This document shows positions 6,880-62,398 of a stretch of 64,000 bases of DNA, in pieces (position 1 is the first letter of the stretch; the number at the start of each line of letters is the position of its first letter). Both the position numbers and the translations under genes were made by a program. Under the pieces are notes generated by a model that was not told the origin of the DNA, made no database searches, and saw nothing but the letters and a program-made list of their open reading frames with translations. This DNA comes from Desulfobulbaceae bacterium (GTDB taxonomy: Bacteria; Bacteroidota; Ignavibacteria; Kapaibacteriales; UBA2268): NCBI GenBank assembly GCA_018335795.1, contig JAGXRP010000066.1:94317-158316 (forward strand), read 5' to 3'.

Positions 6880-7390
6880 TTACTTTTGTGTTAGTTTGAT
6901 ATAAAGAAAGTGCTAATTTACTAAAGATTTGATAGAATGTTTTATAAAAGATTGGGAAATTTTAAAAAAAATGAAAAAAAATTTGGTTCATAGCACATTT
7001 TGAGTTATTTTTAAAGTGCAGTAAAAGGGAAGTGTATATTTTAAATAGTAGAATTATAATGACATCTAGCAAACGAGGCGTTTTCAACGCCTTTTCGGGT
7101 ATTAAAATCACAATAGATGGGACAAAAGCAGTATAAAAATTTATACCATATATATATATGTACTTTTTTTTTGAACAATTTTAGGAATGTTTAAAAACTT
7201 TTTTGATTATTACGATGAAATATTGTAAATTCGATTGATATTTTAAGGAGAAAAAGCAAAAGTTTTTTCTGTTTTGTGCATGAAGCATATTGGCATGGTA
7301 TTTGCAAATAAGTTATTTGAATTTTTTCGAGATTTTTAACAATAGAATGGAACAAAGTTTTAACATATTTTTAATAGGAGTAATGACTGT

Positions 7391-7984
7391 ATGAAAAGAT
7401 TTCTTGCGTATTTCGCAGTCTTAGGGTTGCTCGCAGTGTTGTTTACAACAAGCGCGTCCGCTCAAGGCTTAAAGCTGGAGAGATCTGTAATCGGGAGTGG
7501 TGGCATGGTTGCTGCCCAAAATAATACCGAATACAGCTTAAACGGCGTTACAGGTCAATTTGCCATTGGTACATTGACCGACCAGAGTCCCGGCTCTCAA
7601 AATTGGGATTTGAATCAAGGCTTCTGGGTTCCCGGTCCACAAATAGTTAATAGTGTGGAAGACAATAACCCTTTAGCTAAAAACGACCTGTTCAACTACC
7701 CTAACCCGGTAAACAGGAATACTACAATTGAGTACTATCTGCCATCTGCTGCATACGTGACATTAACTGTTTACGATATGACAGGTAATCGCGTAAAAGT
7801 ACTCTTTGACGGATACCAATCAGGTGGAACCCAGACAATGGATTGGGATACCAAAGCAGACAATGGCGTCGAACTAAGTTCTGGTTCATATTTGTACGAA
7901 ATACAAGTTCGTTCATCTAATATGGCAGGAGCAGACACATTTAAGAGTTTCAGTAATAGAAACATTATGGTTATCGTAAGATAA
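7391..7984 (+). CDS. Small secreted protein with T9SS (Por) C-terminal sorting domain
   Basis: Signal peptide (MKRFLAYFAVLGLLAVLFTTSASA). The C-terminal ~80 aa match the T9SS type-A CTD pattern (NYPNPVNRNTTIEYYLPSAAYVTLTVYDMTGNRVKVLFDGYQSGG...YLYEIQV). AGGAG sits 8 nt upstream of the ATG. Confidence 0.6.
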   Translation: MKRFLAYFAVLGLLAVLFTTSASAQGLKLERSVIGSGGMVAAQNNTEYSLNGVTGQFAIGTLTDQSPGSQNWDLNQGFWVPGPQIVNSVEDNNPLAKNDLFNYPNPVNRNTTIEYYLPSAAYVTLTVYDMTGNRVKVLFDGYQSGGTQTMDWDTKADNGVELSSGSYLYEIQVRSSNMAGADTFKSFSNRNIMVIVR

Positions 7985-11000: not shown

Positions 11001-13717
11001 CTTTGGTTATTAACTCAGATGTTGAAATTCAAGGTGACTTGTATGTAGATGACATTTGGGCTGACGAAGTAAATGCAAACGTTCTTAACGCTGCTTTAGG
11101 CGTATTTGACAATTTGCAAGTTAATATGAATGCTAACGTTGATGGTAACACTACTCTGAACACTTTAGCTACTTCAGGTAACGCTACTGTTGGCGGTACT
11201 TTCGGTGTTACAGGCGTTACAACATTAAGTAACAATTTAATTGTTAACGGTACTTCGACATTGAATGGTGCAGCTCAAGTTAATAATACATTGAATGTAA
11301 CAGGTAATGCTGTACTCAATTCCGCTCCCGGCATGCAAAACACTACAGTTGACAACTTGAACGCTTTGGGCGCTCTAGATGCTGTTGGTGCTATCACAGG
11401 TCAAAGCACTTTGGGTATTGCAGGTAATGTTACTCTTAATACTGCTCCTGGTATGCAAACTACTACTGTTGACAACTTGATTGGTAATGGTACTGCTACA
11501 ATTGCCGGAGCAACTATAATTAACAATACTTTAAATGTAACCGGTCTTTCAACATTATCGAACACTCAAGTTAATGGAACATTAGGTGTAACCGGAGCTA
11601 CTACTTTAGGTAGTACTTTAACTGTTGCAGGTTTGACTCAAATTAATAACAATTTGAACGTAACCGGTAATGCAAATGTTAATGGTAATGGTATTTTCGG
11701 TGGTAACATTAGTGCAGTAAATGGCATCTTCAGTGGTAATATTTCTGCTGTTAATGCTACTTTAAGCGGTACTTTGACTGTAAACGGTGCATACACTCGT
11801 TTGTCAAACACTACTGCTTTACAAGTACAAGGTGGCGACGCCGGAACTCTTGGTGAGCTTTTAGTTAGCCGCGGTGCCGGTTTATCACCTGAATGGACTA
11901 CTTCTATTCCTTATCTTGAAGTTGTTAACCTTGATGTATTAAACAATTTAAGTGTTGGTAATGATACTGATATGATGGGCGACCTTACAGTTGCCGGTGA
12001 TGTATTCTTAAACACTAATGGTCCTGGCTTCTCTACATTCGTACAAGAACTCGTAGTTGCTCAAGATGCGGTTGTCGGTAACGATCTAGCTGTTGGTAAC
12101 GATGGTGTATTCGGTAATGACCTTTTGGTTGTTGGTGATGGAACTGTTGTTGGTGATGCTGATGTATTTGGCGATTTAGAAGTTATGACTAACACTTCAT
12201 TACTTGGTACTTTAGATGTAACCGGTGTTTCTACTTTTGCAAGCGAAGTTGAATTCAACGGAGCTAATGTTGCATTCTCACCGGGTACTGAAGTACTTGC
12301 TTGGGATCCTACATTAATGACAGCAAACTTCGAAGGCGATGCCGGCGATTTATTCGTTAGTCGTGGTGCAGGTTTATCACCTGAATGGACTGACGAACTT
12401 CCTGACCTTACAGTTTCAGGTCTTTTGACTACTATGAACTTGCACGTTACTAATGATGCTCAAATTGATAATGACTTAACTGTAGGTAATGACATCGTTG
12501 TTACAGCCGGTGATGTTGATATCCAAAATGGTAGCTTAAACGTTGGTTTAGATGTAACTGTTGGTAATGACTTAGCAGTTATCAATGATGGTATCTTCGG
12601 AAACGATGTTATCATTCTTGGTGGTGACCTTGACGTAATTGCAGGCGATGCAAATGTTGCTGGTGATGTAAACGCTACAAACGTTAACACAACTAACAAT
12701 GTTAATGCCGGTAATGATGTAAACGCCACTAATAATGTAAACGGTACTAATTTGAATGCATCTAACAATGTTAATGCAACAAACAATGTAAACGCTACAA
12801 ATGTTAATGCAACTAACAATGTTACTGCTCAAAACAACTTAGTATCAGTTAATAATACAGTTGTTGGAAATAACTTGCTTGTTACTAACAATGCTACTAT
12901 CAGCGGAAACTCACATGTATTGGGTAATTCATTAGTAAACGGTACATTAACTGTTGACCAAAATTCATTGTTCAAACAAAGCGTTACTATTAATCAAAAT
13001 TTAACGATTGACCAAAATCTTACAGTTACAGGTTCTTCAACATTCGGTAATACAGTCAGTATTAATAATGCTGATTTGAATATCACTAATGGTGGTATAA
13101 ATGTAATCGGAGATGATGTATTCTTTGGTAACCCTGTAGGATTTAACAATCCTTCAGCATTCGAAGACCTCTACGTACGTGGAAATATCGAAGCTGACGG
13201 TATGATTTTCGGTGCTATCAACCCAGGTTTGACTCCGGGTTCGGTAACATTCGGGGGAGCAGTAGGTCAAATCGCTGAAGATAATGCTAACTTGTTCTTC
13301 AATGACGCAACAAACAGATTGGGTATTGGAACTAATACACCTGCTCAAACTCTTGATGTAAACGGTACAATGAACGTAAGTGGTGCTTCAACTCTTGCTG
13401 CTGCTACTTTGAGCGGTAACTTGACTGCAAATCGCAGAATGATTCACGGTTATACAACTGCAGCTAATTTAGCAGCACTTGTTGCCGCGATAAATAACGG
13501 TACAACTGTTATTCAATACCAAACTGCTAACGCTCTCGAAGCTAACCTCGTAGGTGCTTTGCCTGCAGGAACAACCGGACAAATTATCTATATAATTAAC
13601 AATACTTCAATTGGTTCGATTAGTGTTGGCACTCCTGTCAACCCAAGAACAATTGTTCAAAGCCAAATGGTTGCCTTAATTTACAATGGTACAAATTGGA
13701 TTCCAATGGCTAACTAA
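8048..13717 (+). CDS. Giant secreted fibrous adhesin-like protein (1889 aa) with tail-fibre-like repeats and a C-terminal domain shared with the next gene
   Basis: Signal peptide. Repeated modules with the motif I(T/A)xxKIADxAVTxxKL follow, each trailed by a Trp-rich block (GPVGTILGW(D/N)GT(Q/E)WIET(S/N)VP(E/T)WE). Next comes a long run of 'NxTGxxxLNxxxTxxNL' fibre repeats and an Asn-rich hexapeptide repeat (NVNATN). There is an internal duplication (VSRGAGLSPEWT occurs twice). The C-terminal ~70 aa are conserved with the 13873-17580 protein. Confidence 0.7.
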   Translation: MKKLLLLSFVLLSLIIASVGSVMSQSRLINYQGNILDQQSKPYEGSAQMTFELYDKEFGGSQLWSEIQNVTMNKGYFNVYLGSNTPFPANFSFNRELWVQVTVGTSAPYPRSPLTMVPAAFVSEVASLARFAEDIPDGLVNLNKLSNEVKIMGGDLTGTLPNPRLRPGAILEGIEDGSITQSKLAPNVTTRPSGPASGDLTGFYPDPLIAPGAVNTFKIADGAVTTEKIADYAVTYNKFQNALGPVGTILGWDGTQWIETSVPEWELGKIVEVYAGDGLYVNEMSSYYGNGFFDVQVGIAESGVITSKIADEAVTYGKLQNAYGPVGTILGWNGTEWIETNVPTWETDAVIGNEVLDATPNRGLLRAGLGTLASPFTLGIADNGVVNSMIANQAVSLNKLANGSTGGQVMYWNSVLGQWMLSAGSAPMDNNVIRWVDNGTTRQPQWTSDDAIVGNEVVNATPMGGLVRAGAGTEASPYTLGVMPGGITEPMLAQGAVSLSKLAPGNQIGQIIWWDALTSQWRYSTGAAPTQDYVVKWVDAGGSLTPQWAPDDMTIPYEKSITEHVQTLFALTNNGNSDVMSLTTTGTGDGLMINMPQDLPGGGHALHLNGAGFLQPALNVNVESEYGLPNGAGTVNATINTLDATSAGFKINTVVNDDGNNAYDVDGLQSFLTVNNAVNNGYYTGTWSFAETDNGIATGVWGEAEGMNAQSNFGVIGSADDAAVSNIGVLGVANAPVYQDYTTMFPAGFGAGVTALNEGGSFMDYGVFALVNGEATGAYVEAEDAVAGVFTNNSDMSETVLAFNQGNGDVVVGIANEGSAFVGFNESAMGTAVIENIGTGSAIETASMGTDFPTVLAENLNDGPAAWFVGMNPQADGFANNNSVAAVVNMNNGRALYVEGGAANDENGGNPYFQDPANNDDASLIVVNTAYQGGAPWGTAIKTYGDIWANSTIGASQLVALDALVIGDPLGLNTTLYPPMYPGDPLVINSDVEIQGDLYVDDIWADEVNANVLNAALGVFDNLQVNMNANVDGNTTLNTLATSGNATVGGTFGVTGVTTLSNNLIVNGTSTLNGAAQVNNTLNVTGNAVLNSAPGMQNTTVDNLNALGALDAVGAITGQSTLGIAGNVTLNTAPGMQTTTVDNLIGNGTATIAGATIINNTLNVTGLSTLSNTQVNGTLGVTGATTLGSTLTVAGLTQINNNLNVTGNANVNGNGIFGGNISAVNGIFSGNISAVNATLSGTLTVNGAYTRLSNTTALQVQGGDAGTLGELLVSRGAGLSPEWTTSIPYLEVVNLDVLNNLSVGNDTDMMGDLTVAGDVFLNTNGPGFSTFVQELVVAQDAVVGNDLAVGNDGVFGNDLLVVGDGTVVGDADVFGDLEVMTNTSLLGTLDVTGVSTFASEVEFNGANVAFSPGTEVLAWDPTLMTANFEGDAGDLFVSRGAGLSPEWTDELPDLTVSGLLTTMNLHVTNDAQIDNDLTVGNDIVVTAGDVDIQNGSLNVGLDVTVGNDLAVINDGIFGNDVIILGGDLDVIAGDANVAGDVNATNVNTTNNVNAGNDVNATNNVNGTNLNASNNVNATNNVNATNVNATNNVTAQNNLVSVNNTVVGNNLLVTNNATISGNSHVLGNSLVNGTLTVDQNSLFKQSVTINQNLTIDQNLTVTGSSTFGNTVSINNADLNITNGGINVIGDDVFFGNPVGFNNPSAFEDLYVRGNIEADGMIFGAINPGLTPGSVTFGGAVGQIAEDNANLFFNDATNRLGIGTNTPAQTLDVNGTMNVSGASTLAAATLSGNLTANRRMIHGYTTAANLAALVAAINNGTTVIQYQTANALEANLVGALPAGTTGQIIYIINNTSIGSISVGTPVNPRTIVQSQMVALIYNGTNWIPMAN
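12664..12840 (+). repeat. In-frame Asn-rich 18-nt (hexapeptide NVNATN-like) tandem repeat within the 8048-13717 CDS
   Basis: Translation reads NATNVNTTNNVNAGNDVNATNNVNGTNLNASNNVNATNNVNATNVNATNNVTAQNN. The nucleotide sequence repeats aatgt(t/a)aa(t/c)gc(a/c)ac(t/a)aac units. Confidence 0.6.
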
Positions 13718-13872: not shown

Positions 13873-16800
13873 ATGAAAAAATTTCATATTCTTATTTTTG
13901 GTGTAATCTTCTTCATGGCAACAAGCTTGACACAAGCTTTGCCTGAGATATTTTACACCAATTTTGCGAGAACGACCGGTGGCGGATTAGTCCTAAACTC
14001 GAACGTTGACGTAAGAATAACCATTTTCGACGGCGCTACCGAGGTTTATAAAGAAACCCATGCAGGTATTACTACAGATGAATTTGGTTTATTTACAGTT
14101 CCCGTTGGTGGCGGGGCTCCGGTTATTCCTTTTAATAACGCTATGTACGATGCTTTGATTGCTTCAAACAATCTAAATATCTACGCAGAAAGTGATGCCG
14201 GTGACGGTTACAGATTTATTGAATTACGTTCACTTTTGAATACAGCATTAAGAAATGCTGAAGTTCAAGGAATAGTGACTTTACAAAGTGCTTACGATGC
14301 TGGTAACGAAATCGAAGTAGTTGTTGGATTCCCTGTTGACCTTACCGGTACAGGCTTAATCCAATCGGCAGCTTCAGTTGCTGACATCAATACAAATGGT
14401 CCTTCAACATTGACTACAAAACAATATGTTGACGACGCTATTGCTGCAATTTTCCCATTGCCACATATTACTGAAGGCGATGCTATTGAAATTTTACCCG
14501 ATGGTTATTATGATGGTCAAACTACTCAATCTATTGGTGTAGCTGACAACACTATTTCTAACGTAAAAATCCACGATAATACGGAATTCCAAGAAGTCGA
14601 AGCTTTAGGCGACGGTTTTGCAGATGGAACTGATGTTGGTTCTTGGTCAGTTACAAACTCTAACAGAGTATTAAATTTTGCCGGTGTTGGTTTGACTAAT
14701 GTAACTCGCGACGGTAATACAATTTTAATTGACGGTTCTGATAACTGGGGTTTGCAAGTTGTCGAATCAGATGCAACTCTGATTGGTGATGGTACTATTG
14801 GTAATGAACTTGGCGTTAATCAAGATTTCCCTTTCGTGTGGACTTCTTACCACCAATTTATTCCTGATACTGACGAACCTGCAATTGCTCTTGACGGAAG
14901 TAGTTCATTAACTAATCCTACTTTGATTGCCGTCGGTAATGCAGACCCAGCCGTTGTTGACTTCATGTTCGACGGTGAAATGGTCCTTTTGGGCACTGAT
15001 GATACTGATGCTAATGCTGAATTGACTGTTTACGGTTCAACTCAAATGTTAGGTCAAAAAAATGACGCTCAACCTGAACTTTATGTAGAAGGTGACGTTG
15101 CTGTTACCGGTTCTGTTGATGCTGAACGCGGATTCTTTACTTTTGATAATACAGGTAACGCAGGTGCATTTACTATTATGGCTAATGCCACCGGTGATAC
15201 ACCTTCGAGCCCTACTTTCCCAACTGTAGCTCAAGCTGTTACCGCTATAGCAACTTATTCAGGAGTTGCTCCAAATATGACTGATATGCTTGTTGCAAAT
15301 AATGGCTTAACAAACGCCGGAGCAGGGATATTAGCTGTCGGTACTTACGGTGGTTCACGTTCTGCTAACTTGGTTGCAAATGTCGGTACGGTTGGTCATG
15401 CTTATAATTCATTGAGTCCTTATAATTCTCATGGTATTGTAGGTATGGTTACTACTACTTTATCCGGTGCAACTGAAATTGGAACTGCATTAGGTTTAGG
15501 TATTAACTCCGGTATTACAGGTATCAATTTAGGTGTTGCTGCAAATGATTATGCAGGTTACTTTATTGGTAATGTTAACGTTGATGGCGATTTTAATGGT
15601 ACTGGTAATGCAGTATTTGAAATGGATGTAAATGTTCAAGGTAATGCAGATGTTGATGGTGATTTGAATGCTGATGGTGCAACTACTTTAGGTGGCACTT
15701 TAGATGTAGCTGACAACGCAGTATTTGCAATGGACGTAAATGTTCAAGGTAATGCAGATGTTGATGGTGATTTAAATGCTGATGGTGCAACTACTTTAGG
15801 TGGCACTTTAGATGTAGCTGACAACGCTGTATTTGCAATGGACGTAAATGTTCAAGGTAATGCTGATGTTGATGGCGATTTAAATGCTGATGGTGCAACT
15901 ACTTTAGGTGGCACTTTAGATGTAGCTGACAACGCAGTATTTGCTATGGACGTAAATGTTCAAGGTAATGCTGATGTTGACGGTGATTTGAATGCTGATG
16001 GTGCAACTACTTTAGGTGGCACTTTAGATGTAGCTGATAACGCAGATTTTGCTATGGATGTACAAATTGATGGCATTTTGAATGTTGACGGTACTTCTAA
16101 TCTTAATGGCGATGTAAACCTTGGTGATGTAAGTACAGACAATGTTGTATTCAATGCAATGGTTAATAGTGCTGTAGTTCCATCTATGGATAATACATAT
16201 TCATTAGGTACTGATGCTAACCGTTGGGCTGATGTTTATGTTGGTCCTGCCAGCTTGAATATTGGTACTTCGGGTAACAATGCCGTAATTAGCTATGATT
16301 TAGGCAACAATTGGGTTGATATTAATACTGACCTCAATGTACAAGGTACAGTTTATGGTACAACTTTGAATGGTGCATATACTGAAGGTTCTGTTCTTTT
16401 CGGAGCTGCCGATGGTAGCATTACTGAAAATAATGGAGAACTTTTCTGGGATGATGCAAGTTCATACTTAGGTATTGGTACAGACGCTCCAGCTTCTAAA
16501 TTGCACTTAGTCGCACCTTTAGATGTAGCTTTAATTATCGAAGGTACTCAAGGCGACAGCAATCCTGACGTTTTGATTGACGGTGAAGTATTGATTTTGG
16601 GAAGTGTTAATGGTGATGCTGAATTTTGGATGAATGGTGGCGACGGTATGCTACTTGATGGTGGCGCAAGTTTGCACATTACTAACGGCGACGGTATCCT
16701 TTTAGACGCTGGTGCCAGTATGATTATTGATGATTTGGGAACTTTAAACGTTGATGGCGATGGTACATTTAACAATGACCTTTATGTTTCGAATAATTTG

Positions 16801-54221: not shown

Positions 54222-54298
54222 CGGGATGTAGCGCAGCCCGGTAGCGCACCACTTTGGGGTAGTGGGGGTCGGCGGTTCAAATCCGCCCATTCCGACCA
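54222..54298 (+). tRNA. tRNA-Pro (anticodon GGG), CCA encoded
   Basis: The cloverleaf folds by hand: acceptor CGGGATG/CATTCCG, D-arm GCGC-AGCCCGGTA-GCGC, anticodon arm CCACT-TTGGGGT-AGTGG with anticodon GGG and G37, T-arm GGCGG-TTCAAAT-CCGCC, discriminator A plus CCA. It is close to E. coli tRNA-Pro(GGG). Confidence 0.9.
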
Positions 54299-54316
54299 AA
54301 ACAAAAACCCTTCCAT

Positions 54317-54345
54317 ATAGGGACAGAACAGCGTTCTGTCCCTAT
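54317..54345 (+). terminator. Perfect 13-bp hairpin directly downstream of tRNA-Pro
   Basis: atagggacagaac-agc-gttctgtccctat followed by aatattttt. Confidence 0.55.
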
Positions 54346-54468
54346 AATATTTTTGATAGATCCGAGGAAACTTCGGAAGTTTCCAAAGCTTCCGAAGTTT
54401 GGATTGCATGACTTCAGGTGTTACAACTGACGGAAAGAAGAAAATTTCTCAAAAAAAGTGAAATTTTA

Positions 54469-54499
54469 TTTGCACAGTTCAAAAAATTTTATATATTTG
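54469..54499 (+). promoter_or_regulatory. Consensus FCB-type promoter inside repeat unit 1
   Basis: TTTG-N19-TATATTTG. The predicted TSS at about 54506 is 30 nt upstream of a hairpin terminator. Confidence 0.5.
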
Positions 54500-54536
54500 C
54501 ATATTCCATTTTGTATGTTTAGAGCATTTTCCTACC

Positions 54537-54571
54537 AAAGCGAGCTATCCTTGCTCGCTTTAGTTTTTTTT
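54537..54571 (+). terminator. Rho-independent terminator of unit 1
   Basis: aaagcgagc/gctcgcttt stem followed by T8. Confidence 0.7.
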
Positions 54572-54648
54572 GTGCCCCTGTCCCTTCTTTGTAACACCTG
54601 ACGAGACAAGAAAATTTCTCAAAAAAAGTGAAATTTTATTTGCACAGT

Positions 54649-54669
54649 ATAAAAAATTTTATATATTTG
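54649..54669 (+). promoter_or_regulatory. Consensus FCB-type promoter inside repeat unit 2
   Basis: TTTGcacagtataaaaaattttaTATATTTG. Confidence 0.5.
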
Positions 54670-54736
54670 CATTGCCTTTAAAATTATTTTAAAAATATTT
54701 AATTTTTAAAAACAAAAACATGTAGAAGTTCTCGCA

Positions 54737-54773
54737 CCGAAGCAAGCTCCCCGTGCTAGCTTCGGTTTTTTTT
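54737..54773 (+). terminator. Rho-independent terminator of unit 2
   Basis: ccgaagcaagc/gctagcttcgg stem followed by T8. Confidence 0.7.
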
Positions 54774-55025
54774 GCCCACTGTGCCGTCCGTCAGTTGTAA
54801 CAACTGACGAGACACAAAATCCCCATTTGCCAAAGGGAGAAAGCGAGCTTGCGAGCAGGGGGATTTATATTTGTCCACTTTCCCATCTTTGTTCTCTGTT
54901 CTTTCAGTTGTTACAACTGACAGGAAAAGATAACCACATTATTTCACGCAATGACACACTATTTCGTTAAAAATGTTAATTTTGTAATGTGATTTTGATT
55001 GTTGCAACAAATTAACATATGCTAC

Positions 55026-57788
55026 ATGGCTGAGAACATCAAAGACAAACTGAACAAATTGGTTTTCGATTTTAAATTGTCCAACTATCGCGATTTAAAC
55101 GAGAGCCAAACACGAATTTCATACATTGATAGATTTTGGGAGCTTTTGGGATGGAATGTCCGCAATCCGCTCGAAGTCCAAGTGGAACGCACCGACAAAA
55201 GCTATATGGGCAGAAGACCCGATTACCGCTTCATCAAAGGGAACAAAACCCTGTTTTTTGTGGAGGCAAAAAAACCTGCCGAAGATTTGACTAATCCCCG
55301 ACACATCTATCAGACCAAGCTCTATTGCTGGAACGGTAAAGTGCCTATTGCAATATTGACAGATTTTGAAGAGTTCCGTCCTTTCAGGGCGCTCGGCAAA
55401 CCGCTGATTACCGATGCAAAAAAAGGGCTAATCAAAGAATTGGACATGGTTTGCGATGAATATCCCGACCGAGTTGACGATTTGTTGGCTACATTTGGGC
55501 GGGAAGCCGTTTTTGCGGGCTCTTTGGACGAACTTGTCAAACCCACTCAGTTAGAGCTTCGCGATACTGTGGATAAACATTTCCTCAATTCGCTATCCAA
55601 ATGGAGAATCGAACTCGCATCCCTAATCGCAAAAAAGAATCATTTCGATAATGAGTTCGAGCTTGCCGAAGCCACTCAACGAATCTTGGACAGGCTTGTG
55701 TTTCTGCGGATTTTGCAAGATAGGGACATCGAAAACACGGATTTCATCAAGAGCATTCTCGAGCATCGAGTAGGCAATTCCTATGCAGCATTTCTGTTGA
55801 TTTGCAAGGAACTCGCACCGAAATACAACGGGTTGATATTCAATCCGCATCCGCTGTCTGAAAATCTCACAATCGAAGCATCGCTATTCAAAAATATCGT
55901 CAAAGAGCTGAATGTGGAGGATTCGCCCTACAGATTCGACGAAATCCCCGTAGAAGTGCTCGGCACAATTTACGAACGATTCTTGGGTGACGAAATCAGC
56001 TTCGACAAGGGCAGACAAGTTGTCATAGACCAAAAGCCCGAAGTGCGGAAAGCGGGCGGCGTTTACTACACTCCGCAGTATATCGTCGAGTACATCGTCG
56101 CCAACACTGTCGGGAAGCTATTGGAGCAAGCCCGAACACCGGACGATGTCAGCCGGCTCAAAATTCTCGACCCCGCATGTGGCTCCGGCTCATTCCTTTT
56201 GGGGGCTTTCGATGCACTAATCAAATGGCACGAGGATTACTACAACGCTCATATCACCGAAATTCACGAAAAGAAGGGCAGAAACACGCATTTGCTGGCA
56301 TTCATGGACGAAGAGACCGGCAAGTTGAGATTGACCGCACGAAAAAAGGGCAGAATACTCCAAAACAACATTTACGGAGTGGATATAGACAAGCAGGCGA
56401 CCGAAGTAGCACAGATGTCGCTCTATTTGAAAGTGTTGGAGGGCATAGCCAAGGAGCCGCTCGCAGTCTTGGGATTCCAAGATGCACTGCTGCCAAAGAT
56501 GGACGACAACATCAAATGCGGCAACTCGCTAATCGGGAGCGACTTCATCAGCGACGACTTTTTCGGGATGTCCGAGCGGGAGCGGCACAAAATCAACCCA
56601 TTCGATTGGGAAGTCGCATTCCCATTCTTGAAAATGACCGGTGGCTTCGACGCCGTCATCGGTAATCCGCCGTATGGGGCTGAGTTGCATTTTGATACGA
56701 TTAGATTCTTGAGTGAGAAATATCAAGTCGGCACAACTGATACAGCTGCTTTATTCATGATAACTGCAACAAGAAAAATTAAAACGAATGGATTTGTTGG
56801 ATTCATAATTCCAAAACCTTTTACATATGCCTCTAATTGGAAAAAAGTTAGACAGTCATTATTGAGTGATATAAATAAGATAGTTGACTGTTCAAAAGTA
56901 TGGAAAGAAGTTAAGTTGGAGATGACAGTTTATATTAGTCAAAAAGGTTCTAATAGTAAAATATTTTCGTCGGGAATTATTAAAAAGGACAAAGTTTTAC
57001 ATATTGCTGATATAGATAAGAATCTATGTGAAGAATTTGGTTTTATACTTAATGGTGTTAGTCAAAATGAAATTGAAATTGCCAGAAAAATTAAATCTAA
57101 TGGTGTGAGTCTGAACAATTTAGTTACGAATCAAAGGGGTGGATTATACCAAAAATTCCTTAACAATTCAGGTGATTTATTTGCAATGGGGGGAAAGCAA
57201 ATAAATAGATTTGGAATTGATAATAGACCCAAAGGTATGATTGATGCAACAATAAACATTGATAATAAATCATTCATCAAGCCTGATTCAATTTTAGTTC
57301 AGAATATTGTTGCACATATTGCAAATCCAAGACCTCATATTAAGATTATAGCAACCTCAATTGTCAATGGTGACTTAAGTAAATATATTATTTTAGATAC
57401 AGTAAATCAATTAGTATGCGCCGAGCATGTATCAAGTAAATATATTCTGGGTATTATTAATTCAAAAATAATAAACTGGTACTGTTATCGATTTATTTTT
57501 GCAAACGCGATTAGGACAATGCATTTTGATAGCCCTGTTACCGAGAGAATTCCCATCCCCCAAGACCCTAACCCCCAAACCCAAGAAAAACTCATTGAAC
57601 TCGTCGAGCGAATGTTGCGATTGCACAAGGAATTGCAAACAGCCACAGAGTTCGACCGCAAGCACATAGAGCAATACATCTCCCGCACGGACAAAGAAAT
57701 AGACGCCCTCGTTTACCAACTCTACGCCCTCACTCCCGAAGAAATAAGAATTGTGGAGGGAGAGGGTGAGAAGGAGGATTTTGATTAA
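55026..57788 (+). CDS. Single-chain Type IIG/IIL restriction-modification enzyme (PD-(D/E)xK endonuclease + gamma-class N6-adenine methyltransferase + target-recognition domain), Eco57I/MmeI-like
   Basis: N-terminal nuclease motifs (RRPDYRF ... LFFVEAKKP). Methyltransferase motif I (ILDPACGSGSFLLGAFDAL) and motif IV (VIGNPPYG). A long variable C-terminal region follows. The probable start is ATG 55026 (MAENIKDKL). The tool ORF begins at an upstream TTG (54999). Confidence 0.8.
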   Translation: MAENIKDKLNKLVFDFKLSNYRDLNESQTRISYIDRFWELLGWNVRNPLEVQVERTDKSYMGRRPDYRFIKGNKTLFFVEAKKPAEDLTNPRHIYQTKLYCWNGKVPIAILTDFEEFRPFRALGKPLITDAKKGLIKELDMVCDEYPDRVDDLLATFGREAVFAGSLDELVKPTQLELRDTVDKHFLNSLSKWRIELASLIAKKNHFDNEFELAEATQRILDRLVFLRILQDRDIENTDFIKSILEHRVGNSYAAFLLICKELAPKYNGLIFNPHPLSENLTIEASLFKNIVKELNVEDSPYRFDEIPVEVLGTIYERFLGDEISFDKGRQVVIDQKPEVRKAGGVYYTPQYIVEYIVANTVGKLLEQARTPDDVSRLKILDPACGSGSFLLGAFDALIKWHEDYYNAHITEIHEKKGRNTHLLAFMDEETGKLRLTARKKGRILQNNIYGVDIDKQATEVAQMSLYLKVLEGIAKEPLAVLGFQDALLPKMDDNIKCGNSLIGSDFISDDFFGMSERERHKINPFDWEVAFPFLKMTGGFDAVIGNPPYGAELHFDTIRFLSEKYQVGTTDTAALFMITATRKIKTNGFVGFIIPKPFTYASNWKKVRQSLLSDINKIVDCSKVWKEVKLEMTVYISQKGSNSKIFSSGIIKKDKVLHIADIDKNLCEEFGFILNGVSQNEIEIARKIKSNGVSLNNLVTNQRGGLYQKFLNNSGDLFAMGGKQINRFGIDNRPKGMIDATINIDNKSFIKPDSILVQNIVAHIANPRPHIKIIATSIVNGDLSKYIILDTVNQLVCAEHVSSKYILGIINSKIINWYCYRFIFANAIRTMHFDSPVTERIPIPQDPNPQTQEKLIELVERMLRLHKELQTATEFDRKHIEQYISRTDKEIDALVYQLYALTPEEIRIVEGEGEKEDFD

Positions 57789-57907
57789 ACGTTTCCCACA
57801 TATATACTTAAAAAATATTATGAATTCCTAAAAATGTTGAAATCTTTTTTGGTTATTTTTTACTTTTGGAGGCTTATATTTGCTTTTTTAATGTTAAAGG
57901 ATTTAAT

Positions 57908-59026
57908 ATGAGTAAGGTAGTATATGTTGATGAATCAGGCGCACATGGTTTTAATAGTTCGGATTCAAGAGGTAATTTTTATGTCATTTCGTTGGTCATT
58001 ATTGATGAAGTGAAGCGAAGTGATTTTGAATCAAAATATTTATCGGTGATTAGGAATCATCATCAGAGCGAGTTTTTAAAGTATTCAACTCTTAAAAAGA
58101 AGCGAAATTGCAATGAAATCATTGACGAAATTATGAAGTTAGAATTCTCGTTTTTCTCCTTAGTTGTTGACAAGAGTAAAATTCATAAGGATAGTGGATT
58201 GAAGTTTAAAACAGTATTTTACAAATTTCTTCATAGAATTGTGTATGAACGACTTTTTAAATCATTTCAAAAAATTAATATAATCAGTGATGATTATTGT
58301 GATGATGATTTTCATGATAGTTTTAAAAAATATATTAAATCTATTACTCAAGGAATGAGCTTATTCAAAGATGTAGAGATTACATTTGTAAATCGTGATC
58401 CCATTGTACAATTGTCAGATATCATTTCTGGTGTTTTTAGAGATAAACAGATAAATGAGCAAATTGATATTTACAATAAGTTAAAGACAAAATCACTATT
58501 TTGCTATAATTTCCCTCAGTCTTTTTACATAAACCAAGATAATGTAAATGATAGTTTGTTAGAGCAGAACGGAGTATTGAATTCAGATATTATTCAAGAA
58601 ATGTCTATTAAAGTCACTATAGAAGCAATTCATAAATTAAAGGATGAAAATTCAAAATTTTTATTACATCTACTATTGTTGAATTCCTTCTCTTTACATG
58701 ATGATTATATTCACAGTCATAAAATTGTGAATCACTTTAAAGAATTTTTTGATATTGACATTGAGGAGAATCAAGTCAAACGGAGCATGATTCCAAAATT
58801 ACGAGACAAAGGTGTTTTAATTTCAAGTTCTCCAAAAGGATATAAATTACCTACGAAATATTCTGATATATTGGATTATATTGCAATAACTGATAGGAAC
58901 GTTAATAACCAGATAAATAGGTTAGAGAATTTTCTGAAAGATTTTGCAATAAAGCTTGATAAGCCGATTCACGATTTAGTTGATGAAAGTAAGTATTTTA
59001 AATTGAATCAGATATTGGCTCGTTAA
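57908..59026 (+). CDS. DUF3800-family protein
   Basis: Begins MSKVVYVDESGAHGF, the characteristic (I/V)Y(I/V)DESG N-terminus of DUF3800. It ends at about 372 aa and is very AT-rich. The likely start is 57908 (the tool ORF starts 57866). Confidence 0.55.
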   Translation: MSKVVYVDESGAHGFNSSDSRGNFYVISLVIIDEVKRSDFESKYLSVIRNHHQSEFLKYSTLKKKRNCNEIIDEIMKLEFSFFSLVVDKSKIHKDSGLKFKTVFYKFLHRIVYERLFKSFQKINIISDDYCDDDFHDSFKKYIKSITQGMSLFKDVEITFVNRDPIVQLSDIISGVFRDKQINEQIDIYNKLKTKSLFCYNFPQSFYINQDNVNDSLLEQNGVLNSDIIQEMSIKVTIEAIHKLKDENSKFLLHLLLLNSFSLHDDYIHSHKIVNHFKEFFDIDIEENQVKRSMIPKLRDKGVLISSSPKGYKLPTKYSDILDYIAITDRNVNNQINRLENFLKDFAIKLDKPIHDLVDESKYFKLNQILAR

Positions 59027-59126
59027 GAATTTTGTCCCATCAGTTGACAACTTACGGAACAACAAGGAGTTATTATGATTTTCGATAATGAAACATTTAC
59101 AAATTCATGCGAAACAATATAAAACT

Positions 59127-59867
59127 ATGTCAAAATCAAAAATAGAATGGACAGAGAGTACATGGAACCCGATTACGGGGTGTACGAAAATTTCTTCCGG
59201 TTGCCGATTCTGCTACGCAGAAATTATGGCAAGAAGGTTGCAAGCTATGGGGCAACCCAAGTATGCCGATGGTTTCAAGCTGACTATTCACCCGGATACC
59301 CTTGACGAGCCATATACTTGGAAAAAACCCAGAGTGGTATTCGTTAATTCGATGAGCGATATTTTTCATAAGGACGTTCCGATTGACTTCATCCAAAAAA
59401 TTTTCAAGGTAATCAACGACAATCCGCAACATGTTTTTCAGGTTCTGACCAAACGGGCAGATGTACTATATAAATATGACAGCGAGGGTTTGCTGAATTG
59501 GTCGGAGAATTTGTGGATGGGTGTAACTGTGGAAAGTTCTAAAGTTACCAAAAGAATAGATTTTTTGAGACGAACCGGTGCACATGTAAAATTTCTCTCC
59601 TGCGAACCCTTGATTAGTGCTATTCCCAATATGAATCTTAGCGGAATTGATTGGGTAATTGCCGGTGGCGAAAGCGGACGCACTCCACGCCCAATAGACA
59701 AAGAATGGGTGCTCGACATAAAGCAACAATGCGACAATCTGGGCGTTGCCTTTTACTTCAAACAATGGGGCGGTACAAATAAGAAAAAAAGCGGTAGAAT
59801 GATTGATGGCGTTACTTATGATGCCATGCCCAGAAGCGTCACAATATCCAACACCAAAACGGCATAG
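59127..59867 (+). CDS. Gp37/Gp68-family protein (DUF5131) with three-Cys motif
   Basis: MSKSKIEWTESTWNPITGCTKISSGCRFCYAE (Cx6CxxC) ... VFVNSMSDIF ... VIAGGESGRTPRPIDKEWVLDIKQQCDNLGVAFYFKQWGG. This matches the DUF5131 family pattern as I recall it. The likely start is 59127 (the tool ORF starts 59088). Confidence 0.7.
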   Translation: MSKSKIEWTESTWNPITGCTKISSGCRFCYAEIMARRLQAMGQPKYADGFKLTIHPDTLDEPYTWKKPRVVFVNSMSDIFHKDVPIDFIQKIFKVINDNPQHVFQVLTKRADVLYKYDSEGLLNWSENLWMGVTVESSKVTKRIDFLRRTGAHVKFLSCEPLISAIPNMNLSGIDWVIAGGESGRTPRPIDKEWVLDIKQQCDNLGVAFYFKQWGGTNKKKSGRMIDGVTYDAMPRSVTISNTKTA

Positions 59868-60009
59868 GTTCAATCCCATCTTTGTTCCTGAACCGAAACT
59901 AATGTACCAAAATCAAAACAAGGAAATCCCCCGAAAGCCGTTCCCCCTCTTGTAAGAGGGGGTTAGGGGGTGTTCTGTATCAAAAAAAAACAAAAAAAAA
60001 CAAAAATAA

Positions 60010-60040
60010 TTTGCACAGTATAAAAAATTTTATATATTTG
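60010..60040 (+). promoter_or_regulatory. Consensus FCB-type promoter inside repeat unit 3
   Basis: Identical to the unit 2 promoter. Confidence 0.5.
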
Positions 60041-60104
60041 CATTGCCTTTAAAATTATTTTAAAAATATTTAATTTTTAAAAACAAAAACACAATTTCTC
60101 TACC

Positions 60105-60140
60105 AAAGCGAGCTCCCCGTGCTCGCTTTGGTTTTTTTTA
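60105..60140 (+). terminator. Rho-independent terminator of unit 3
   Basis: aaagcgagc/gctcgcttt stem followed by T9. Confidence 0.7.
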
Positions 60141-60268
60141 TACCCACTGTGCCGTCCGTCAGTTGAACAACTGACGAGACACAAAAACCTGCTTTGCCAA
60201 AGGGGGATTTCCCCAAAAAAAAGCTGCCCCAATCGAGACAGCCATTTTTGTACAATATTGCTATGTAA

Positions 60269-62398
60269 TTAATTCGATGGTTCGGATATCAATCCACGCT
60301 TGCGGAGTAATGGCTCAATTGATGGCTCGGCACCGCGGAATTTGACGTATAGTTTCATCGGGTCTTCAGAGCGACCGCGTTCTAAGATGTTTTTTCGTAA
60401 AGAAGTGGCTGTCTTTTGGTCGAAAATTCCGTTTTCTTTGAATGCTTCGAATGCGTCCGAATCTAACACGCCTGACCAAATATAGCTGTAATATCCCGAT
60501 GAATATCCACCTGCAAAAATGTGGTTGAAGTATGTGCTTCTGTATCTGGGGATTATTTCGTCAATTAGTCCGATTTTCTTCATCTCTTTTTCCTCGAATG
60601 AGTTAACGTCCGATGTAAATGGTTTTGTCAAGGTGTGGTAAGCCATGTCGAGGTATGATGCCGCAAGGTATTCGCCTGTAGCAAATCCTTGGTTGAAGTG
60701 CTCGCTGGCACGCATCTTATTCAATAATTCACGGGGAATGACTTCGCCTGTTTTGTAGTGCTTGGCATACATTGCCATTACTTCGTCTTCTGCCGCCCAA
60801 TGTTCCATCACTTGCGATGGCAATTCGACAAAATCACGTGGCACGCTTGTACCTGATATCGAGACGTAATCGCATTGCGAAAATAGCCCATGAAGCGCAT
60901 GTCCGAACTCATGGAATAGGGTTGAGGCTTCGTCAAAAGTTAATAGTGATGGCGTATCTCCCGTGGGTGGCGAGAAGTTGCAAACGATGCTTACTACAGG
61001 GTGCACTCGCTTTCCGTCTTTGTTGAATTGCTCGCGGAAGCTGGTCATCCATGCACCGCCGCGTTTGCTGGCTCTTGGATGGAAATCTGTGTAAAACACA
61101 GATAAATGGCTCCCGTCTTTGTCCAAAACTTCGTAACATTTTACGTCTTCGTGATATACGGGAATATTTTTGATTTCTTTGAAAGAAATTCCCCAAAGTT
61201 TGTTTGCAACAGTGAAGGCACCTTGTAATACGTTATCCAGTTTGAAATAGGGACGAAGTGCTTCTTCGTCCAAGTCGAATTTTTCTTGACGCACTTTTTC
61301 GGCATAATAGCGCCAATCCCATGGTTCGAGTTTGAAATCCCCACCTTCGCGATTAATAAGTGCTTGGAATTGCATAGCTTCGTCCTTTGCAACTTTCAGA
61401 GCCGGTTCCCATAATTGGTCTAATAATTTGTAAACTCCTTCGGGGTTTTTCGCCATATTTTCTTCTAAAATGAAATGTGCATGGCTTTCATACCCGAGTA
61501 ATTGAGCGCGTTGAATTCGCAAATTAACTAAATTTTTGATTATTTCCTTATTGTCGAATTCGTTACCGTTGTTGCCACGTAGCATATATGCACGCCAGAT
61601 TTTTTCACGCAAATCTCGTTTGGCTGAATATTGCAAAAAAGGTAATAGGCTTGGGTTTTGCAATGTGAACATCCATTTGCCCTTATGTCCGGCTTTAGTG
61701 GCAGTTTCGGCGGCTGCATCAATAAGCGATTGTGGCAATCCTACCAAATCTTCTTTTTTATCCAAGAGCATCTGGAAGGCGTTATTTTCTGCTAATACAT
61801 TTTCGCCATATTTTAATGTCAATGATGACATTTCCTCGTTGATTTTACGCAATTTAGCTTGGTCATTGTCGTTGAGTCCGGCTCCATTGCGGATGAAACC
61901 TTTGTAAGTTTCTTCAAGCAATACGGCTTTTTCGCCGGTCAATTTCAATTTATCTTTTTGTTCGTAAACGCTTTTGACTTTGTTGAATAATATTTTATTC
62001 AAACGGATATTGTCGCCGTGCTTTGTGAGTTCGGGAGAGATTTCGCGAGCAAAAGCTTGAATATCAGGGTTTGTATTTGCTGAGTTGAGGTTGAAAAATA
62101 CACGTGAAACCGAAGCAAGCAATGAGCCGGCGCGTTCCAAAGCCTCGATAGTGTTCTCAAAAGTTGGGACTGCACGATTATTAGTGATTGCGCCGATTTC
62201 GAGATTATGTTGATGGAATGCTTCGTCAAAAGCGGGTTTGAAATGCTCTATTTTAATCTTATCGAAAGGTGGCACCCCAAAAGGCGTATCGAATGGCTTC
62301 AATAGCGGGTTGTCTTCTTTTGCATTTGCAGACATAATATTCATAAATAGTATCCCAATAAACAGATTCATAATAATAAACTTCATCATTCTATCCAA
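60269..62398 (-). CDS. dcp: M3-family zinc metallopeptidase (peptidyl-dipeptidase Dcp / oligopeptidase A-like), secreted
   Basis: Signal peptide. HEFGHALHG (HExxH zinc site) with the downstream Glu context typical of M3 peptidases. 709 aa. Confidence 0.85.
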   Translation of the reverse strand: MDRMMKFIIMNLFIGILFMNIMSANAKEDNPLLKPFDTPFGVPPFDKIKIEHFKPAFDEAFHQHNLEIGAITNNRAVPTFENTIEALERAGSLLASVSRVFFNLNSANTNPDIQAFAREISPELTKHGDNIRLNKILFNKVKSVYEQKDKLKLTGEKAVLLEETYKGFIRNGAGLNDNDQAKLRKINEEMSSLTLKYGENVLAENNAFQMLLDKKEDLVGLPQSLIDAAAETATKAGHKGKWMFTLQNPSLLPFLQYSAKRDLREKIWRAYMLRGNNGNEFDNKEIIKNLVNLRIQRAQLLGYESHAHFILEENMAKNPEGVYKLLDQLWEPALKVAKDEAMQFQALINREGGDFKLEPWDWRYYAEKVRQEKFDLDEEALRPYFKLDNVLQGAFTVANKLWGISFKEIKNIPVYHEDVKCYEVLDKDGSHLSVFYTDFHPRASKRGGAWMTSFREQFNKDGKRVHPVVSIVCNFSPPTGDTPSLLTFDEASTLFHEFGHALHGLFSQCDYVSISGTSVPRDFVELPSQVMEHWAAEDEVMAMYAKHYKTGEVIPRELLNKMRASEHFNQGFATGEYLAASYLDMAYHTLTKPFTSDVNSFEEKEMKKIGLIDEIIPRYRSTYFNHIFAGGYSSGYYSYIWSGVLDSDAFEAFKENGIFDQKTATSLRKNILERGRSEDPMKLYVKFRGAEPSIEPLLRKRGLISEPSN

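Follow-up and report, generated by a model that had tools for sequence, protein, structure and literature searches.

At core defence hotspots variable defence cargo lies between conserved core genes, without recognisable mobile-element genes. The locus described here likewise holds variable defence cargo between conserved genes, but differs in having a frame of its own, made of non-coding units and repeat elements. A closer parallel is offered by restriction-modification (RM) genes inserted with long target duplication, where the flanking repeats are 46-423 bp (PMC2853133). Shared with those insertions are RM genes without a linked mobility gene, long direct repeats (~200 bp here) and a type IIG enzyme that varies in its target-recognition domain; the repeats would likewise correspond to a single copy in a cargo-free allele. 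In contrast, the duplicated target here is a promoter-terminator-palindrome module present at two loci and in several species, extra elements built of 18-bp repeats bound the cargo, and the empty allele belongs to the other hotspot and not to the tRNA-Pro locus.

Integron cassette arrays and CALIN resemble the locus in their co-oriented ~20-100-bp boundary elements with inverted ends, in having some non-coding cassettes and in lacking an adjacent recombinase. However the boundary element here has neither attC cores nor a long imperfect hairpin and carries 18-bp direct repeats instead, the cargo genes have their own promoters, and no integrase or attI was seen. As to the units themselves, FopS, one of the FopS/GibS small RNAs of Bacteroides (PMC11697453), has a similar layout, although FopS members share a conserved seed, are dispersed and are in Rfam, whereas the units here have a hypervariable 5' region, are tied to defence hotspots and have no Rfam match. 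We regard the anatomy as a variant of the long-target-duplication RM insertion or of the cassette array, together with an unannotated candidate RNA family.

The tRNA-Pro hotspot

In the window, by which is meant the whole 64-kb stretch of DNA analysed, the hotspot region is bracketed by a tRNA-Pro(GGG) gene and a convergent M3 peptidase gene (60269-62386), with an OPT transporter gene and a 169-aa ORF upstream of it (Table 1). The second of two hairpins 3' of the tRNA is the final native sequence ahead of the inserted array, and the native flank starts again at ~60211, beyond site E. The three cargo genes occupy the interval from site D to unit 3.

Table 1. Features of the tRNA-Pro hotspot, in window coordinates
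Feature	Position	Strand	Remarks
tRNA-Pro(GGG), conserved left neighbour of the hotspot	54222..54298	+	ARAGORN; Rfam tRNA 61.5 bits
REP-like terminator hairpin 3' of the tRNA	54316..54346	+	native sequence; present at other loci too
Second native hairpin, AAACTTCGGAAG...CTTCCGAAGTTT	54359..54406	+	homologous to L081 6323-6387
Palindromic site A, TTCAGGTGTTACAACTGAC	54413..54431	.	left edge of the array
Unit 1, body type 1	54469..54571	+	promoter 54469-54499; terminator stem 54535-54563 + T8
Site B, half-degenerate palindrome TTCTTTGT A ACACCTGAC	54585..54602	.
Unit 2, body type 2	54639..54773	+	promoter 54639-54669; AT-rich 5' hairpin; terminator stem 54737-54765 + T8
Site C, perfect palindrome GTCAGTTGTAACAACTGAC	54790..54808	.	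extends to 54785-54813
Segment X and degenerate 18-bp-repeat element	54809..54921	+	ends in site D (54903-54921)
Conserved motif AATGACACACTATTTCGTTAAAAATG	54950..54975	+	RM upstream region
Type IIG RM gene, cargo	55026..57788	+	Pfam Eco57I/N6_Mtase/TaqI_C; PADLOC REase_MTase_IIG 6e-130
DUF3800 protein gene, variable middle cargo gene	57866..59026	+
DUF5131 protein gene, cargo	59088..59867	+	PADLOC candidates PDC-M41B/M30B
Single 18-bp repeat remnant, TCCCATCTTTGTTC	59874..59887	+	right end of the cargo
Z hairpin motif	59924..59975	+	also in L088 7310-7361 and L089
Unit 3, body type 2	60010..60139	+	promoter 60010-60040; terminator stem 60103-60131 + T8
Site E, palindrome CCGTCAGTTG-AACAACTGACGA	60156..60177	.

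The region is not a classical tRNA-integrase island, because there is no integrase and the tRNA 3' end is not duplicated at the far boundary; a repeat search found no duplication of tRNA sequence in the window, and Pfam found no recombinase or transposase domain among the tested ORFs of at least 130 aa across the 64 kb.

Some further sequences in and around the hotspot may be recorded here. The hairpin GGGACAGAACAGCGTTCTGTCCC 3' of tRNA-Pro (window 54318-54341) has 100% identical copies at unrelated intergenic sites (L086 1100-1123, L087 80-103, L082 12175-12198) which suggests a repeat family of REP-like or terminator type. Upstream of the RM gene the motif AATGACACACTATTTCGTTAAAAATG is found in the window and at L088 7925, L089 7925 and L090 47, and a second L088 copy (10960) stands before the second cassette gene there, so that it may be a shared operator or promoter. 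The Z motif, AAATCCCCCGAAAGCCGTTCCCCCTCTTGTAAGAGGGGGTTAGGGGGTG, is a G/C hairpin found together with units in three genomes (in L089 at ~11680-11730). Elsewhere in the window, at 8048-29490, three giant ORFs (1889, 1235 and 3869 aa) have internal repeats, among which is a 108-nt tandem array (15477-16124).

The window comes from a metagenome contig of Kapabacteria-like character and matches the ENA contig ERZ27300255:k141_36725 (L086) at 100% identity. For its M3 peptidase the identity to proteins of Candidatus Kapabacteria MAGs is 94-95%, while GTDB species representatives reach only 64%. Relatives hold different cargo between tRNA-Pro and the peptidase gene, a Fic/RhuM gene (PDC-S23/S05) with a Por_Secre_tail gene in L081 and DUF1828 (PDC-M24B) with two other genes in L082-L084, and so the locus is a hypervariable defence hotspot. 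The L081 cargo boundaries carry half-sites CCGTCAGTTG and no units; L082 has neither half-sites nor units. None of the motifs occurs in 80 distant peptidase loci (53-64% identity).

Three stretches of the window recur at 96-97% identity in L107, an independent Logan assembly. The first (54802-56673) takes in segment X, the degenerate element and 1.7 kb at the 5' end of the RM gene, the second consists of the final 175 nt of that gene, and the third runs from DUF5131 via Z up to where unit 3 begins. In the RM target-recognition region and the middle gene the two show no similarity, and L088 is a mosaic of the same kind. The target-recognition region (56674-57596) and the middle gene (57772-59125) are thus swapped between islands that are otherwise 95-97% identical, the middle gene being DUF3800 in the window, PDC-M41A in L088 and GMT-wHTH in L107.

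Units of promoter, body and terminator

A repeat search linked three stretches of the window (54450-54577, 54620-54840 and 59991-60207), and each of the three units within them consists of an A-rich upstream stretch, a promoter of the form TTTG-N19-TATATTTG, a body and a terminator hairpin. The looser pattern TTTG-N18-20-TAnnTTTG has 9 matches in the window where shuffles give 1.2, and because several of the further matches stand before ORFs this promoter type appears to be used in the host organism. The bodies of units 1, 2 and 3 are 35, 67 and 62 nt long and free of ORFs, the terminator stems have 9-12 bp with T8 after each, and fold z-scores of the window units and terminators run from -3.6 to -7.6. 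The predicted RNAs would extend over ~54505-54571, ~54675-54773 and ~60046-60139, that is ~67, ~99 and ~95 nt.

An earlier note on this DNA had described promoter-to-terminator cassettes with transcripts of about these lengths, and both descriptions are borne out. It had also taken unit 3 for a recombinant of the unit 2 body with the unit 1 terminator, which is not supported and not needed, since the unit 3 terminator is the family consensus of other genomes (L095, L088) and it is unit 2 that has private stem substitutions. That the units make up the island boundaries, a third claim, is right in so far as units flank the cargo, but the boundary marks proper, palindromes and 18-bp elements, had been overlooked.

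No conserved ORF is common to the units, and a small peptide was rejected as their product, the 28-aa ORF of unit 1 reading through the terminator and being missing from the other units. A hammerhead-like stretch, CTGACGAG, was likewise dropped, Rfam giving no ribozyme match.

A direct repeat (54638-54840 against 60009-60207; 89.8% identity over 205 nt by BLAST) is made up of units 2 and 3, their palindromes C and E and ~35 nt beyond, and brackets a 5.2-kb insert. At this size the insert is below 20 kb, it combines R and M functions in one fused type IIG enzyme and has no mobility gene, and its flanking direct repeats (205 nt, 89.8%) exceed 30 bp, all as in the described RM insertions.

The second hotspot and the cargo-free allele

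RM homologues in GCA_023957315.1 (L088) and HGW-Ignavibacteriae-1 (L089) lie at another locus, between a Crp-like cNMP-binding gene and the gene for OAD-beta. Units are found there too: L088 has one at 7046-7196 with 84% identity to unit 1 and one at 7439-7629 with 80% identity to unit 2, and L089 7590-7729 is a homologue at 72% identity. Further alleles of this second locus, obtained through a metagenome match and look-ups of the Crp-like protein, gave more units in L094/L105 and L095/L096/L098. Overall it is clear that the feature is real, non-random and conserved, the architecture recurring in 9 or more distinct copies from at least 6 assemblies (at least 5 besides that of the window), and a TTTG-N19-TA(T/C)(A/G)TTTG promoter stands in all 9 distinct unit copies. 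Promoter and terminator are conserved in sequence, whereas the transcribed body is the least conserved part and falls into at least four unrelated types.

Two kinds of allele at this locus bear on how cargo is placed. The cargo-free alleles (L094, L105/L106) run from the flank through one type-2 unit, a palindrome CCGTCAGATGTCACAACTGACGAGACA, a terminator hairpin and a repeat element to OAD-beta; a single-copy unit with its palindrome is seen only here (L094/L105). The RM cargo of L088 is placed exactly between its type-2 unit and the same terminator hairpin, which in the empty allele comes directly after the palindrome, and the cargo therefore occupies the position of the palindrome. The other kind (L095/L096/L098/L101/L103) runs from the flank through a type-4 unit, a half-site, a PDC-M30A gene, a degenerate element and a type-2 unit to OAD-beta. 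Cargo thus lies between two units in L095 as in the window, although the flanking units of L095 share promoter and terminator only and not the body.

Matches to PADLOC models of phage defence candidates (PDC-M30A, M41A, M24B and S23/S05) are seen among the cargo of both hotspots (L095 5589-6665, L088 11037-11921, L082 13157-13912 and L081 6486-7466), the M30A gene of L095 being without its usual DUF5131 partner. In L102 1-43, upstream of the Crp-like gene, the cargo-promoter segment is inverted relative to L098, which could be due to an invertible segment of ~290 bp or to a chimeric contig end. A second hairpin family, CATAGCCCACGAATTCATTCGTGGG, occurs at L088 7235-7260, 7655-7682 and 7787-7835 and in L082 at ~14520 and ~12250, and gives sub-threshold Rfam matches (24-25 bits against a threshold of 37 bits) to the Acido-Lenti-1 RNA motif.

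Profile searches over 1.64 Mb of loci found the promoter part and the terminator part at the two hotspots only, and there are no copies of the unit in the rest of the 64-kb window or in the ~200 kb of close-relative sequence outside the hotspots. The exact promoter pattern gave 0 matches in GTDB genomes, JGI metagenomes and IMG/VR, and the palindrome and terminator patterns 0 in IMG/VR; three viral matches to a looser repeat-element pattern all fell by chance inside one 2076-aa ORF and were set aside, and BLAST of the region against plasmids and phages returned nothing relevant. Several contigs of independent assemblies (L087, L099/L100/L104, L107) end inside units or palindromes, as expected of true multi-copy repeats, and this speaks against misassembly of the source contig.

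It is very improbable that units and palindromes are selfish MITE- or REP-like intergenic repeats gathering in a permissive region, with no part in cargo turnover. Such repeats would account for the small size of the units, for the terminal inverted repeats ACAMCTGACGAGAC...GTCCGTCAGTTGT and the inverted ends of 12-15 bp, and these regions of the lineage do contain several other REP-like hairpin families. However the flanks have no target-site duplication, each locus has 1-3 copies only with none outside the two hotspots in the 1.64 Mb, and the unit positions coincide with cargo boundaries.

Palindromes and 18-bp-repeat elements

A palindrome, GTCAGTTGT(A/T)ACAACTGAC, lies ~20-35 nt 3' of every terminator. 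Its copies in the window (at 54413, 54585, where one half is degenerate, 54790, 54903 and 60158; 6 matches against 0 expected) all have the same polarity, the left arm being variable and the right arm, ACAACTGAC(G/A)G, conserved, and the edges of unit-to-unit homology coincide with the palindrome sites. Cassettes in L088, L089, L094 and L105 are bounded by an expanded form of 60-100 bp, consisting of a left end GTCCCGTCAGTTGTTCT, 2-5 tandem copies of an 18-bp repeat (consensus GTCCCGTNTTTGTTCTCT) and a right end GTAACAACTGACGGAAC. Even alleles that are nearly identical differ in the number of copies, L094 having 2 and L105 having 5. Against this expanded form the window palindromes align as a minimal one, with one 18-bp repeat fused to the inverted right end, and site D and 59874-59887 are degenerate remnants of 18-bp elements that flank the RM genes; the stretch from segment X to site D is the counterpart of element E2 upstream of the L088 RM gene. 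Not the promoters but the palindromes and the elements of 18-bp repeats mark the boundaries proper.

Boundary marks of this sort raise the question of an integron-like cassette array served by a site-specific recombinase elsewhere, with palindromes and 18-bp elements as its sites and the units as non-coding cassettes. Co-oriented sites bound every unit of the window, co-oriented elements of ~100 bp separate the cargo genes of L088 and L089 (individual genes in L089), other cargo, that of L081, is bounded by the half-site CCGTCAGTTG, and the lack of a cis-encoded recombinase recalls attC clusters without an integrase. An element also stands between Z and the unit in L088 and is missing in the window and L107, and modules are ordered Z-unit-RM-DUF5131 in L088 but (unit)-RM-DUF5131-Z-unit in the window. 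This difference in order is compatible with circular intermediates, but partial tandem duplication explains it equally. The elements moreover are not attC-like: pairing in a single strand of the expanded element is confined to the 12-15 terminal bases (z-scores -1 to -2.3), the interior consists of direct repeats, and an attC identity was rejected because no 7-mer in the ends fits RYYYAAC or GTTRRRY and no hairpin spans the whole site. The 64-kb window has no integron integrase, and no recombinase was found among its tested ORFs of at least 130 aa; cargo orientation in L081 is not uniform, and only a handful of arrays have been seen. We consider such an array improbable.

A more elaborate form of the same idea, which we hold to be quite improbable, would have a so far undescribed Kapabacteria/Ignavibacteria cassette platform, again with its recombinase elsewhere, in which palindromes and 18-bp-repeat elements delimit defence cassettes at several hotspots and each platform carries a dedicated RNA (promoter, variable hairpin, terminator) for recombination or cassette control. 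If true, this RNA might for example guide the reaction or give it specificity, or its transcription might activate the site beside it.

Possible RNA products of the units

The units may also be primarily stand-alone genes for small regulatory RNAs, sibling sRNAs whose place at island edges is secondary, for instance because their 3' ends serve as insertion targets as those of tRNA genes do. Transcription of the units is plausible judging from their sequence. None of the 9 distinct copies has lost its consensus promoter or intrinsic terminator, the cargo-free allele has the unit on its own, and in Bacteroides there are multicopy sRNAs built in this way (FopS, PMC11697453). With bodies of types 2, 3 and 4 the fold consists of a hairpin at the 5' end, a single-stranded linker and then the terminator (z -3.6 to -7.6), one stem pair varies as A-U/G-U/G-C, and one-base deletions in L094 match on both arms so that the AT hairpin is preserved.

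In contrast to what such genes would lead one to expect, conservation is lowest in the body, where the seed would be sought and where orthologous positions hold four unrelated types, and the terminator is conserved as sequence, as expected of a young or homogenised DNA repeat. The earlier note had named a covariance scan and an Rfam search as checks, and neither gave a positive result: 8 of the 12 terminator pairs are invariant, the covariation score was reached by 165 of 500 shuffles and is not significant, the RNAalifold covariation term is +1.44, and neither the window nor its relatives gave an Rfam match for the units at gathering or permissive thresholds, FopS/GibS models included. Only the tRNA passes, the best other scores being 14-21 bits with E >= 0.3. 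Antisense regulation of the cargo was rejected, as duplex energies and longest complementary runs compared with shuffles gave nothing significant (best p ~0.06), and adjacent cargo mRNAs show no excess complementarity. A classical conserved-seed regulator is unlikely, and stand-alone sRNA genes as the primary nature of the units are a doubtful though by no means far-fetched explanation. The conservation of promoter and terminator could nevertheless equally reflect selection for an RNA product.

A proposed landing pad duplicated around the RM insertion

We favour, with a probability of about 0.55, the reading of the unit as the landing-pad module of a defence hotspot, duplicated around the RM insertion, with palindromes and 18-bp elements as the likely crossovers and the enzyme acting in trans. 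It starts from the anatomy as observed directly, its conservation over genomes and two loci, the single-copy empty allele and the cargo at the palindrome position. Each unit would be a copy of a small autonomous non-coding module, with a Bacteroidota-type promoter and a 35-67-nt body that usually forms a 5' hairpin, and within one Kapabacteria lineage the module would be resident at defence-gene hotspots as their landing pad. Cargo would insert at or beside the palindrome, or beside its expanded 60-100-bp form with 18-bp repeats, and insertion would leave the cargo between two copies of the module. Crossing over would take place at the palindromes and repeat elements, and since no recombinase was found in cis among the tested ORFs the recombining enzyme would have to act in trans.

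Applied to the window, this landing-pad reading would make units 2 and 3 the ~200-bp duplicated target around the 5.2-kb insert of type IIG RM, DUF3800 and DUF5131 genes, and unit 1 a paralogous module with another body type that travels with the RM cassette. An empty tRNA-Pro allele was not found, L081 and L082 holding other cargo and no units, and target duplication at this locus is therefore inferred by analogy. The L095 units that differ in body count against simple duplication, so that not every case is explained. The promoters may well fire and yield RNAs of ~65-100 nt. The units are probably landing-pad modules, conserved and likely to be transcribed, and may be sRNA genes.

Conserved frames would also permit cargo swapping. 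The idea, voiced in the earlier note, that the units act as portable homology arms fits with this, both in the direct-repeat flanks of the window and L095 and in the one frame with different cargo in L107.

Significance

For the question of how defence genes enter and leave integrase-free chromosomal hotspots, this lineage offers a compact, sequence-defined frame. The frame, which consists of unit, palindrome and 18-bp-repeat elements, is shared by two loci and several genomes whose cargo differs, and with an empty allele for comparison the mechanism of insertion becomes testable. The units also add a candidate family of RNAs, so far without annotation, to a phylum that has been little studied.
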